The notes under the pieces: model-generated
Told to the model about the DNA's origin: nothing
Seen by the model: only the letters and a program-made list of their open reading frames with translations
The model's database searches: none
Program-made: the position numbers and the translations under genes
NCBI GenBank assembly: GCA_049303835.1
Contig: JBAQNN010000002.1
Coordinates: 9,248-73,247, forward strand
Reading direction: 5' to 3'
Length of the DNA: 64,000 nt
From: Minisyncoccia bacterium
GTDB lineage: Bacteria; Patescibacteriota; Minisyncoccia; Phycocordibacterales; UBA9973
In this document: positions 2,666 through 20,835 of the stretch, piece after piece
Position numbering within the stretch: position 1 is the first letter of the stretch
Layout of the letters: each line of letters opens with the position of its first letter

Positions 2666-3433
2666 TTATAACACATATTTACCTATCCTGGTTCTCTTGA
2701 TGGAGAAAGCCAGAGCGGGCATTCCAACCATATTTCCAAGAGCATTTGCTATACCCCTCACATAAGTTCCACTACTGCATTTGATGTCAAATTTCGCTAT
2801 TGGAAAGACTTTCTGTCCTTTGTTTGAAACACGTAAAGTTTCTCTCCAAATTTCCAAAATTTCTTTTTGTCTAAAATCTCCTTTTACTTTTTTTATCCTT
2901 TTTTCTATGTTTTTAAATAACTTTTTATTATTTATCTCTATTATTTTATCTAATTTAAGTTTTTTAATAAATATTTTTCTCTCTGGAATTTCCACTTCTT
3001 CTCCTCTCCTCGCATATACAAACAAAGGCCTTCCTTTTACCGTTTTGGAAGAATAGATGGGATATTTTTGAATTATTTCCCCTAGAAAATTTTTTAGATT
3101 TTCTTTTATTTTTTTCTTTAAATCTCTTTTATTTAATTCTACTAATTCTCTACTAACAACCTTACCCAAAATATCAAAAGTATCTGTACTAAAACCAAAA
3201 AGAACTTGAAATTCATATTCTTTCTCTAACGTTAGATATTTTTCTTTATTTTTTGTTTCTTCACCTGCAAGTATCAGCAAAAGACCACTTGCCATCGGAT
3301 CTAGCCTACCGGCGTAAGTCATTTTTATATTTTTATATTCCGGATACTTTTTAGTTTTTTTCAGACGAAAATTTTCTAAAGCCTCAAGCGGAGTTTCCCC
3401 CTCTTTTTTGTTTAGTAAAATCACTTTCTTCAT
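2666..3433 (-). CDS. truB: tRNA pseudouridine(55) synthase TruB
   Basis: Motif AGRLDPMASGLLLILAGEETK. Start placed at MKKVILLNKKEGE (ATG at 3431-3433); the longer ORF would overlap the adjacent tRNA. Confidence 0.85.
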   Translation of the reverse strand: MKKVILLNKKEGETPLEALENFRLKKTKKYPEYKNIKMTYAGRLDPMASGLLLILAGEETKNKEKYLTLEKEYEFQVLFGFSTDTFDILGKVVSRELVELNKRDLKKKIKENLKNFLGEIIQKYPIYSSKTVKGRPLFVYARRGEEVEIPERKIFIKKLKLDKIIEINNKKLFKNIEKRIKKVKGDFRQKEILEIWRETLRVSNKGQKVFPIAKFDIKCSSGTYVRGIANALGNMVGMPALAFSIKRTRIGKYVL

Positions 3434-3521
3434 TGGCGGAGGGTAGGAGATTCGAACTCCTGGTGGATTGCTCCACACACGCTTTCCAAGCGTGCGCACT
3501 AGACCGCTATGCGAACCCTCC
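3434..3521 (-). tRNA. tRNA-Ser (anticodon GGA), type II with long variable arm
   Basis: Reverse complement folds as acceptor GGAGGGT/ACCCTCC, anticodon arm CACGC-TTGGAAA-GCGTG, variable stem-loop GTGGAGCAATCCAC, T-arm AGGAG-TTCGAAT-CTCCT, discriminator G and an encoded CCA. Confidence 0.8.
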
Positions 3522-3522
3522 G

Positions 3523-3668
3523 TAATAAATAAACAAAAAACACGCTTTCCAAGTCAGTAGTCCCTTCGGCACTAGACCGCTATGCGAACCCTCCGTAATA
3601 AATAAACAAAAAACACGCTTTCCAAGTCAGTAGTCCCTTCGGCACTAGACCGCTATGCAAACCCTTCT
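3523..3668 (-). repeat. Two tandem ~73-bp direct repeats (3523-3595 and 3596-3668, 2-3 mismatches). Each is a truncated copy of the tRNA-Ser 5' half followed by a T-run
   Basis: On the minus strand each unit reads GGAGGGTTCGCATAGCGGTCTAGTGC..CTTGGAAAGCGTG TTTTTTGTTTATTTATTA. It shares the acceptor 5' strand, D-arm and anticodon loop with the neighbouring tRNA. Confidence 0.7.
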
Positions 3669-3678
3669 TGCAACTTCC

Positions 3679-6313
<2,635 letters not shown>

Positions 6314-6314
6314 A

Positions 6315-6863
6315 TTATTCTGTCCAATTAAATAAATTTTCCGAAAAAGTCACATCATACTGACCCGAGCCTTGCGTCCATGAAACAGTAGAAAATATTT
6401 TAATATTATCGGCTGATACTGTCTCCATGTAAACAGTGCGCACAAAACCCGAATCAACACCAATAGAATTGGTATTATAATTCCCATTTTGTTCATACAA
6501 TTTACATTGGTTACTGTGAGTTGTACATACAAATACATTCTGAGGAAATAAAGTAACATCAAAACCACATCTATTGGCTAAAGTGCATGAAGATATCTTG
6601 GTTTTAAAATTATTCCACCCACCAGGAAGAGTATATAGTGCGTTTGTATCTCTCATGTTTCTGATATATTCTATACCCTCTTGGGCAAGGTAACCGGCCA
6701 CCGTTTTCTTTTTGGCATATCCGGTGTCTGAAATTCCTTTAGATAAGACAGACAGTAAACCCAGAATTGATACAGTGAAAATAGAAATGGCTACCAGGGT
6801 CTCCACCAGGGTAAAACCTTTTTCTCCTCTACCTTTTTTATTTTTTTTAAAAAATAATTTCAT
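6315..6863 (-). CDS. Type IV minor pilin (prepilin-type N-terminal cleavage/methylation domain)
   Basis: GFTLVETLVAISIFTVSILGL class III signal peptide. Confidence 0.6.
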   Translation of the reverse strand: MKLFFKKNKKGRGEKGFTLVETLVAISIFTVSILGLLSVLSKGISDTGYAKKKTVAGYLAQEGIEYIRNMRDTNALYTLPGGWNNFKTKISSCTLANRCGFDVTLFPQNVFVCTTHSNQCKLYEQNGNYNTNSIGVDSGFVRTVYMETVSADNIKIFSTVSWTQGSGQYDVTFSENLFNWTE

Positions 6864-20425: not shown

Positions 20426-20450
20426 GGCAATACTATAACACAAAACCCTG

Positions 20451-20539
20451 CGGAGCCGGACGGATTCGAACCGTCGAGGGGTTTTGAAGCCCCTGCCTCT
20501 TTAGCAAAGAGGTACGTTAGACCACTCTGACACGGCTCC
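20451..20539 (-). tRNA. tRNA-Ser (anticodon GCT), type II
   Basis: Acceptor GGAGCCG/CGGCTCC, anticodon arm CCTCT-TTGCTAA-AGAGG, long variable arm, T-arm GACGG-TTCGAAT-CCGTC. CCA not encoded. Confidence 0.8.
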
Positions 20540-20629
20540 GTACGTAATTAAATAATTACTTAATTACGTAGTTACTCTAGCATATTTGTTTCATTTTTCC
20601 ATTTTTCTGCTATACTCCTTTTAAGTTTA

Positions 20630-20744
20630 GGAGAGATGGGTGAGATGGGCAAGGAGGCAACTGCTTGCCTCCGAGCCGGCACGAAGTGCAGGCCACGAAC
20701 CCATCGAATCGCGCAAGCGACTCCGTTTAAGCGGAGCTAATATA
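20630..20744 (+). other. tRNA-like fragment: duplicate of the first 15 nt of the downstream tRNA, then a ~100-nt GC-rich structured segment
   Basis: GGAGAGATGGGTGAG is identical to the 5' end of the tRNA at 20746. It is followed by an 8-bp stem GGAGGCAA-CTGC-TTGCCTCC and the hairpin GACTCCG-TTTAA-GCGGAGC. Confidence 0.3.
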
Positions 20745-20745
20745 C

Positions 20746-20835
20746 GGAGAGATGGGTGAGTGGCTTAAACCAACAGTTTACTAAACTGTCGTCCCCTTAA
20801 AAGGACCGAGGGTTCGAATCCCTCTCTCTCCGCCA
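20746..20835 (+). tRNA. Type II tRNA (long variable arm) with an atypical anticodon loop. The standard cloverleaf gives anticodon ACT (Ser-like); a one-nt register shift gives CTA
   Basis: Acceptor GGAGAGA/TCTCTCC, anticodon hairpin ACAGT-TTACTAA-ACTGT, variable arm CGTCCCCTTAAAAGGACC, T-arm GAGGG-TTCGAAT-CCCTC, encoded CCA. Confidence 0.55.

Follow-up and report, generated by a model that had tools for sequence, protein, structure and literature searches.

Tandem partial copies of tRNA-Ser(GGA) upstream of the gene in a Minisyncoccia bacterium: probably a doubled insertion allele

Two tandem, nearly identical 73-bp units lie directly upstream of an intact tRNA-Ser(GGA) gene in a 64,000-nucleotide stretch of a Minisyncoccia bacterium genome (assembly GCA_049303835.1, contig JBAQNN010000002.1, positions 9,248 to 73,247), the whole of which is referred to here as the window. 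The units are a real feature that chance does not account for. Each is a mosaic composed of tRNA nucleotides 1–26, a 15-nt segment termed X, tRNA nucleotides 32–45 and a 19-nt T-rich tail. On balance, the units are probably a non-coding scar of partial duplication, that is, an inert insertion allele of tRNA-Ser(GGA) that has recently been doubled.

Anatomy of the 73-bp units

The minus strand reads, in order, the ligA stop codon, an 11-nt spacer (GGAAGTTGCAA), unit A, unit B, tRNA-Ser(GGA) and the ATG of truB (Table 1). The original prediction, made from the letters of the sequence, had placed the units next to the tRNA gene and had them fill the entire gap up to the ligA stop. They do adjoin the tRNA gene, with the correction that on the gene strand they stand upstream (5′) of it, between ligA and the tRNA, and they nearly fill that gap, but the 11-nt spacer remains. 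Both the true tRNA and truB are intact.

The presence of two near-identical tandem units was borne out by Tandem Repeats Finder (TRF), which returned a period of 73 nt with 2.3 copies and 98% matches (3496–3665), and by counts of the individual segments against shuffled sequence. The 26-nt segment from the tRNA 5′ end occurs three times, exactly at 3496–3521 and 3569–3594 and with two mismatches at 3642–3667. The other 47 nt of the unit, comprising X, the core and the tail, occur twice, both times exactly, and the 13-nt anticodon-loop block within them, CTTGGAAAGCGTG, has three occurrences. In dinucleotide shuffles the mean number of matches was 0 for the 26-nt segment, 0 for the 47-nt segment and 0.05 for the 13-nt block. 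The exact repeat is 90 nt long, at an offset of 73 nt.

The earlier description of the units as truncated copies of the 5′ half of the tRNA holds for the blocks of nt 1–26 and 32–45, which are both present, but the 15 nt that it had elided, CGAAGGGACTACTGA, make each unit a mosaic. This segment, X, takes the place of the anticodon-stem 5′ strand (GCACG). The core that follows it is identical to the tRNA over 14 nt (tRNA nt 32–45) when the next T is counted. Both units end in TTTTTTGTTTATTTATTAC, in agreement with the T-run originally noted; this tail, Y, is a shortened form of a spacer, S, which precedes the tRNA gene in two relatives (L048 and L068) and is also present in the unit of a third (L053). 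Units A and B differ only at nt 2 and nt 9 of unit A, the 5′ part of unit B being identical to the tRNA.

The units were also tested for the properties of a gene or a signal. The true tRNA folds into a cloverleaf of −38.3 kcal/mol (z = −3.4). The fold of the unit, at −12.6 kcal/mol, is no better than those of its shuffles (z = +0.89, RNAfold), and the unit of L053 gives a similar value against shuffles (z = +1.2). In Rfam searches at E ≤ 10 the true tRNA was the only match, with none for the units. A consensus scan of 3522–3667 returned no sigma-70-like promoter and no intrinsic terminator; no proper hairpin precedes the T-run, as the pairing partner of GCGTG has given way to X. The units contain no credible open reading frame (ORF), only ones of 21–30 amino acids with GTG or TTG starts, and the plus strand holds nothing notable. 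By these tests the units do not qualify as tRNA-half genes or as intrinsic terminators. Expressed tRNA-half RNAs, one of the explanations initially offered, found no support, the units having no covariance-model match, stable fold, consensus promoter or terminator.

Other candidate identities were tried and dropped. A structured RNA was rejected on the negative results of both Rfam and the comparison of RNAfold energies with shuffles, and a small ORF, proposed by analogy with the tyrT locus of Escherichia coli, on the negative ORF check. A CRISPR-like array or an intron was rejected on anatomy, as the apparent ‘spacers’ are identical and a complete tRNA follows them.

Table 1. Positions of the repeat units, their neighbours and the other features discussed. 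Window positions count from the first letter of the stretch; all others refer to the locus named.
Feature	Locus	Positions	Strand	Remarks
ligA (NAD-dependent DNA ligase)	Window	3679–5832	−	Stop TAG 3681–3679; ORF list; Pfam DNA_ligase_aden/OB/HHH/BRCT
Spacer, ligA stop to unit A	Window	3668–3678	−	Counterpart of the short spacers in unit-free relatives
Unit A, whole	Window	3667–3595	−	
Unit A, copy of tRNA nt 1–26	Window	3642–3667	−	Acceptor 5′ strand and D arm; 2 mismatches (G2A, C9T)
Unit A, segment X	Window	3627–3641	−	15 nt, not tRNA-derived
Unit A, core	Window	3614–3626	−	13 nt; copy of anticodon loop and anticodon-stem 3′ strand
Unit A, tail Y	Window	3595–3613	−	19 nt, T-rich
Unit B, same four segments	Window	3522–3594	−	5′ part 3569–3594, exact; X 3554–3568; core 3541–3553; Y 3522–3540
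tRNA-Ser(GGA)	Window	3434–3521	−	Intact, class II, CCA encoded; ARAGORN and Rfam; cloverleaf
truB (tRNA pseudouridine-55 synthase)	Window	2666–3433	−	ATG immediately after tRNA CCA; same junction in L048
Second locus with a 5′ self-copy	Window	20609–20835	+	tRNA 20746–20835; its first 15 nt, GGAGAGATGGGTGAG, recur exactly at 20630–20644
tRNA-Ser(TGA) leader	L063	1139–1358	+	
tRNA-Met leader	L032	8097–8270	−	
tRNA-Asp leader	L012	8430–8600	−	
tRNA-Asp leader	L015	9560–9760	+	
tRNA-Asp trailer	L013	6116–6330	+	About 110 nt; GGACTTGAACGGGAAAGGG...GGGAAAAC...GTGAAATG
tRNA-Asp trailer	L015	9761–9930	+	
tRNA-Asp trailer	L032	7030–7197	−	
AATAA(T/G)GTA(A/G)A(T/C)TA motif	L004	7891–7935		
AATAA(T/G)GTA(A/G)A(T/C)TA motif	L008	6900–6945		
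AATAA(T/G)GTA(A/G)A(T/C)TA motif	L011	6738–6775		
AATAA(T/G)GTA(A/G)A(T/C)TA motif	L018	4330–4359		
AATAA(T/G)GTA(A/G)A(T/C)TA motif	L053	3425–3464		

The locus in relatives and a homologous unit

Loci of relatives (numbered to L069) were retrieved mainly via ligA. The ligA product of the window is 100% identical to a protein from an NCBI metagenome-assembled genome (MAG) of a Minisyncoccia bacterium, and its next-best relatives come from Paceibacterota/Nomurabacteria MAGs. The closest relatives keep the order pilins/prepilin peptidase, ligA, tRNA-Ser(GGA), truB and a peptidoglycan-binding protein; in the window, too, type IV pilus genes (pilins/prepilin peptidase) adjoin ligA. In the nine relatives that could be read as far as the tRNA, ligA is directly followed by the tRNA gene, and none has a unit. 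The distance from the ligA stop to the tRNA is 11 nt (AAAAGTCACAA) in L049–L052, whose ligA is 79% identical to that of the window, 12 nt (GGAAGTAATTTT) in L060 (77%) and 7 nt in L069 (77%), and L047/L048 (85%) have the 41-nt spacer S in this place. The tRNA is identical to that of the window in all of these loci, and in L048, L049, L060, L069 and L053 the identity covers the 85 nt from nt 1 up to and including the discriminator base; five of the nine relatives have the identical tRNA. L047 is a second contig of L048, and L050–L052 are additional assemblies of L049. More distant Paceibacterota (L002, L005, L017, L056 and L057) also have ligA, 6–17 nt and the tRNA, with no unit; the 5′ part of the L057 tRNA is as in the window, and its anticodon stem and variable arm differ. 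The 11-nt spacer of the window fits the short-spacer type, and the 5′ segment of unit A therefore sits at the ancestral start of the tRNA. From these comparisons, a single-copy tRNA gene free of units, with no element in residence, is the usual state at the ligA–tRNA locus. The question, raised at the outset, whether the single-copy tRNA is ancestral is thereby answered in the affirmative for this locus.

Some contigs are interrupted at or near this gene. The relatives’ Logan contigs L058, L059 and L047 end within tRNA-Ser(GGA), that of L059 exactly after nt 26, where the sequences of unit and tRNA part; strain-level branching at this gene in those samples could produce such ends, which are uninformative alone. 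In L018, a run of Ns and then a piece of Illumina adapter, ACACGACGCTCTTCCGATCT, separate ligA from the tRNA (4299–4335). In L011, a run of Ns directly precedes a downstream copy of the tRNA 3′ end, about 136 nt past tRNA-Ser(GGA) (6650–6737, minus strand), and this downstream ‘repeat’ may be a scaffolding artefact.

The original prediction had turned in part on the unit being found elsewhere, and one homologous unit does occur in another lineage. A scan of JGI metagenomes for two D-arm 17-mers 40–70 nt apart yielded three contigs (L053–L055), and a protein look-up added a fourth, from ENA (L061); all four are identical over the 300 nt compared at the locus. They carry a single unit, made up of GGAGGATTCGCATAGCGGTCTAGTGC, CGAAGGAAATATAGA, CTTGGAAAGCG and C-TTTTTTGTTTGTTAGTATTTGAATTGAAAAAT, followed by a tRNA identical to that of the window. 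The copy begins at tRNA nt 1 and has a single mismatch, at nt 6; its X′ segment is identical to X at 11 of 15 positions and its tail is 14 nt longer. The ligA of L053 is 73% identical to that of the window, and the unit and tRNA are inverted relative to it, lying between a 73-residue ORF and a gene for a UvrD/PD-(D/E)XK helicase. The sequence upstream of this unit, GCTTTCTTTTTATTGGAAATAATGTAAATTAGAGACAA, is homologous to the one directly preceding the tRNA in L004 and L008. The insertion, consisting of X, core, tail and nt 1–26, is common to the two different upstream contexts of the window and L053, and in both lineages the pseudo 5′ segment is placed where the tRNA starts in unit-free relatives. 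As the one-unit architecture was assembled independently four times, the module is a real sequence, either inherited or exchanged; the four assemblies say nothing on the number of copies in the window. The module itself is older than its doubling there.

A conserved motif, AATAA(T/G)GTA(A/G)A(T/C)TA, is found 8–10 nt upstream of free-standing tRNA-Ser(GGA) genes (Table 1) and is probably a tRNA promoter. In L053 this promoter-like motif precedes the pseudo 5′ half rather than the tRNA.

Origin of the module and alternative accounts

Formally, the allele corresponds to the insertion of X, core, Y and a further copy of tRNA nt 1–26 after nt 26 of the tRNA gene. The module may go back to an event at the tRNA gene, either illegitimate recombination or a partial duplication. 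It could be gained by homologous recombination into the tRNA-Ser(GGA) of another genome after DNA uptake and lost by precise excision through recombination between the 26-nt direct repeats. In the lineage of the window, the tail would have lost about 14 nt, after which unequal crossing-over or slippage would have duplicated the 73-nt module, the exchange point lying 3′ of nt 9 in the 26-nt repeat. Substitutions confined to nt 2 and 9 of unit A are as expected from a crossover 3′ of nt 9 in a one-unit ancestor, and relatives with no unit (L048, L049, L060, L069 and others) and with one unit (L053, L054, L055 and L061) both exist. Replication slippage, initially suggested as an artefact, is, together with unequal crossing-over, the best account of the doubling, given that the units differ by only two substitutions, but it is neither the whole story nor necessarily an artefact. 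Simple tandem duplication fits the doubling, not the origin of the mosaic module. The most likely function of the units in the window would be none.

The tail has a counterpart in sister lineages. The core and tail of L053 align without gaps to the ligA stop and spacer S of L048 at 33 of 44 positions, and none of 200 shuffles was as good; L068 (ligA 77% identical) also has an S-type spacer, its contig ending at the start of the tRNA. Segment X shows partial complementarity to the D arm, on its 3′ side.

The distribution of the module bears on whether it was inherited or exchanged. At four-fold degenerate sites of ligA, the window is 0.33 identical to L053, a saturated value, and 0.55 identical to L048. 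Despite the saturation of neutral sites, the window and L053 agree at 73–79% of the positions in X and the tail and have one and the same tRNA sequence. In the ligA tree, L053 falls outside the clade with this tRNA allele, and L056, L006, L004 and L003, which have other alleles, lie in between. A horizontal exchange that carried tRNA and module jointly is favoured over purifying selection, because the module lies within tRNA sequence on both sides and would be recombinable into related tRNA-Ser(GGA) genes; the 26-nt direct repeat permits precise loss and would therefore restore unit-free loci of the kind observed. The alleles of tRNA-Ser(GGA) are discordant with the ligA tree more generally (L002–L069): L056 has a ligA 78% identical to that of the window, yet visible differences from the tRNA of the window are spread over its acceptor stem, D arm, anticodon stem and variable arm, and L053, with a ligA 73% identical, has the same tRNA sequence. 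In L003, L004, L008, L011 and L053, moreover, the tRNA gene is inverted with respect to ligA. This discordance and the inversions suggest frequent recombination at the tRNA-Ser(GGA) gene, and the type IV pilus genes beside ligA are compatible with DNA uptake.

Several points weigh against an inert allele spread by exchange. Purifying selection, and with it a function, would account for the conservation of X and the tail no less well than recent transfer. The ligA tree is a neighbour-joining tree without support values, star-like and with short internal branches. No source of X was found by blastn-short in the 69 loci and the window. The recurrence of 5′ self-copies at 6 of 43 tRNA loci and the co-variation seen at tRNA-Asp (both described below) hint at frequent conversion or a selected role. 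The number of units in the window, two, is an assembly count, and with a 90-nt exact repeat at a 73-nt offset short-read assemblies could miscount the copies.

A functional role would take the form of a cis-acting leader of the tRNA gene, such as a promoter cassette, an attenuator or a processing element that mimics the tRNA 5′ half, the two copies in the window strengthening or modifying its effect on tRNA and truB expression. As a promoter cassette, it would have TTGGAA as the −35 element, a 17-nt spacer and TG-n-TAGTAT as the −10 element. Spacer S of L048 and L068, read by eye, contains T(A/T)GGAA, 17 nt and TG(Y)TAGTAT, ending 14–16 nt before the tRNA +1 position, and S is plausible as an extended −10 promoter. 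The place of the −35 element is taken in the unit by TTGGAA, from the copy of the anticodon loop, and L053, L048 and L068 have T(T/A)GGAA, 17 nt and TG(T/C)TAGTAT in common at that same distance from the tRNA. This arrangement, weak when judged by eye in the three loci, is truncated in the window, where 14 nt, TAGTAT among them, are missing from the tail; a promoter in S, should there be one, would be crippled there. The −10-like hexamers that remain end 2 nt before the next copy, so that a transcript would begin inside the tRNA, which counts against a leader. The conservation of X and the tail far above the neutral level argues for one, as do the recurrence of 5′ self-copy leaders at other tRNA genes, three of them strongly structured (z −4.2 to −5.4), the homologous tRNA-Asp leaders of L012 and L015, each of which matches its own tRNA in three blocks, and the retention of leaders of about 100 nt in very compact genomes. 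The consensus scan, however, flagged neither promoter nor terminator in the units, which are not stably folded; the distribution is patchy, and of the nine ligA relatives that could be followed into the tRNA seven have neither unit nor S, ligA and the tRNA being only 6–17 nt apart; L048 and L068 carry S. A leader is accordingly considered rather unlikely.

Scars of site-specific integration and excision, the first explanation originally proposed, are regarded as improbable, somewhat more so than a leader. They would require an integrase-bearing element with a replacement 5′ half of its own and a target in the 5′-distal part of tRNA-Ser(GGA). It would have integrated, perhaps twice by accretion, and then been deleted almost completely, with two minimal remnants flanked by attachment (att) sites left behind. 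There are rare documented cases of recombination with the 5′-distal part of tRNA genes, and accretion arrays, which arise when a site is used again, are documented too (PMC6563490). The units resemble att duplications in that segments of the tRNA form direct repeats (the 26-nt and 14-nt blocks), the intact gene is regenerated, relatives have empty sites and tandem arrays are possible; the tRNA-derived blocks stop around the anticodon arm, the classical crossover region, and the same module stands in two upstream contexts. Copies of 3′ ends downstream of other tRNA genes in these genomes also resemble classical att repeats. They differ from att duplications in that no element or integrase was found at the units and no attP-bearing replicon in the pattern searches of IMG/VR, the spacing is only 73 nt, and a foreign 15-nt piece lies inside the tRNA-like part. 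The scar reading has no direct support: the order of genes on both sides is as in unit-free relatives, the repeats are only 47 nt apart (59 nt in L053) with no integrase or element genes, and near-total deletion would be needed independently in every case seen. The tail, being homologous to the native chromosomal spacer of sister lineages, is not obviously foreign DNA.

Searches for a mobile source were likewise negative. A 24-mer spanning X and the core had no exact match in IMG/VR or the JGI metagenomes, and patterns for the D-arm/X junction, the gapped unit and the doubled D arm had none in IMG/VR; no viral contig there has the unit junctions as exact patterns, a negative answer, for IMG/VR, to the proposed search for phages carrying the unit. 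Plasmids and Patescibacteria genomes at large lay outside these searches. Matches to a D-arm 19-mer in IMG/VR were set aside as unrelated, as they came only from the tRNA arrays of large phages.

It is very unlikely that the doubling, or the insertion as a whole, is an assembly artefact produced by repeat expansion or by a chimeric join of strains. Such an error is made conceivable by the 90-nt exact repeat, which exceeds many assembly k-mers, by the need for a read to span more than 165 nt to count the copies, by the lack of a second assembly of the strain on record, the contig index containing neither the ligA of the window nor its 100% identical database counterpart, and by the assembly junk (Ns and adapter) at the same spot in the related MAG L018. 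However, the novel junctions between D arm and X, core and tail, and tail and 5′ part are not obtainable by collapse or expansion alone, and the fourfold independent assembly of the one-unit architecture in another lineage also speaks against it. The two private substitutions of unit A mean that the copies were resolved as distinct.

A doubled insertion allele has partial parallels in known systems. At the E. coli tyrT locus, 178-bp repeats reportedly lie by tRNA-Tyr genes, and every repeat opens with a copied tRNA end segment. In both cases tandem units abut a tRNA gene and contain an exact fragment of its terminus, the functional tRNA is intact and unequal recombination is invoked as the explanation. 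The tyrT repeats, however, are downstream and copy the 3′ end, whereas the units of the window are upstream and copy the 5′ part and the anticodon-loop block; a small basic protein is encoded in the tyrT repeats, which also contain the operon terminator, and neither feature is seen in the units. tRNA pseudogenes and partial tandem duplications of tRNA genes occur in organelle genomes and bacterial tRNA operons. The units are like them in being truncated, non-folding copies beside the parent gene that would result from slippage or unequal crossing-over. They are unlike them in that their tRNA blocks are perfectly parental, with everything else substituted wholesale instead of eroded by point mutations, and in that a distant lineage has the module as well, amid other genes. 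Natural transformation can involve homology-facilitated illegitimate recombination, in which a conserved anchor, here the tRNA, is joined to a foreign flank at a microhomology, which would explain the hybrid upstream regions. Such events usually delete recipient DNA, whereas part of the anchor is duplicated in the window, and transformation is here a possibility only.

Self-copies at other tRNA loci and their implications

In a scan of 43 distinct tRNA loci, a small and non-random sample, the sequence within 400 nt of each gene was searched for exact copies of 11 nt or more of the tRNA. They were present upstream on the same strand at 6 loci, upstream antisense at none, downstream on the same strand at 4 (all copies of the tRNA 3′ end) and downstream antisense at 2, against a chance expectation, by our own estimate, of about 0.3 loci per class. 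The upstream cases are tRNA-Ser(GGA) of the window, the L053 type, tRNA-Ser(ACT) of the window, tRNA-Ser(TGA) of L063, tRNA-Asp of L012 and tRNA-Met of L032. Five of these six copies begin at tRNA nt 1, and so does that of the L053 type, in which the mismatch at nt 6 breaks the exact match. The 5′ self-copy pattern in the tRNA loci of these Patescibacteria is a lead, not a result.

The second such locus in the window has a class II (Ser-type) tRNA with the anticodon loop TTACTAA, to which ARAGORN assigns the anticodon ACT. This anticodon is unusual for bacteria. The upstream 15-nt copy directly follows an extended −10-like box, TGCTATACT, and is separated from the tRNA by 101 GC-rich nucleotides. 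The copy and insert together (20630–20745, 116 nt) fold at −48.5 kcal/mol (z = −4.5), with none of 200 shuffles as good, and match no Rfam family. In a search with the neighbouring gene, which encodes a peptidoglycan-binding protein, the best match was 50% identical and the gene order was not conserved, the protein evolving too fast for such a comparison; a contig retrieved in this way happened to show another leader with a 5′ copy. A normal tRNA-Ser(GCT) gene lies in divergent orientation at 20450–20539, and a near-perfect 30-nt palindrome (20541–20570) is situated just past its 5′ end, between the two tRNA genes. A leader peptide acting by attenuation at Ser codons was considered for this leader and that of L063 and dropped, the window version having a single Ser codon.

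In the other leaders (Table 1), copies of the tRNA’s own 5′ end lie 92–132 nt upstream and measure 12 nt for tRNA-Ser(TGA) of L063, 21 nt for tRNA-Met of L032 and 17 nt for tRNA-Asp of L012. The tRNA-Asp leader of L015 has a 9-nt copy 110 nt upstream, an 18-nt insert and a further 9-nt block. The copies are followed by hairpin-forming inserts, with z values of −4.2 in L063 and −5.4 in L032. Between L012 and L015 the tRNA-Asp leaders are homologous, and three separate blocks of each agree with the tRNA of its own locus, a sign of concerted evolution through conversion or selection. Downstream of tRNA-Asp, three loci (L013, L015 and L032) have a conserved, structured trailer with complementarity to the tRNA T arm at its 5′ end and an exact copy of the last 15–16 nt of the tRNA at its 3′ end; in L013 and L032 the terminator hairpin of the tRNA is repeated after it. 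The trailer matches no Rfam family.

These leaders and trailers could belong to a previously undescribed class of ‘self-echo’ modules, which copy the terminus of their own tRNA and enclose a hairpin- or promoter-bearing insert, although such a class is at present doubtful. If it were real, the modules may spread by homologous recombination with the tRNA as flanking homology, a passive mobility independent of any recombinase, or they may instead be cis-regulatory or processing elements required to match their tRNA. The 73-bp units of the window would then be the doubled member of one such family.

Taken singly, the locus is of little consequence, the tRNA and its neighbours being intact and the units most likely inert. 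Partial tRNA copies of this kind can mimic att sites or tRNA halves in MAGs, and relatives should be compared before elements or small RNAs are inferred from them. The same module in two gene contexts, beside an identical tRNA and in the face of saturated neutral sites, suggests that recombination passes tRNA alleles, and insertions that hitchhike on them, between these ultra-small and probably naturally competent bacteria. The upstream 5′-end copies at 6 of 43 loci, with none antisense, may represent either a mutational signature of the phylum or a new class of tRNA leader, and some of them enclose strongly structured RNAs that match no family.

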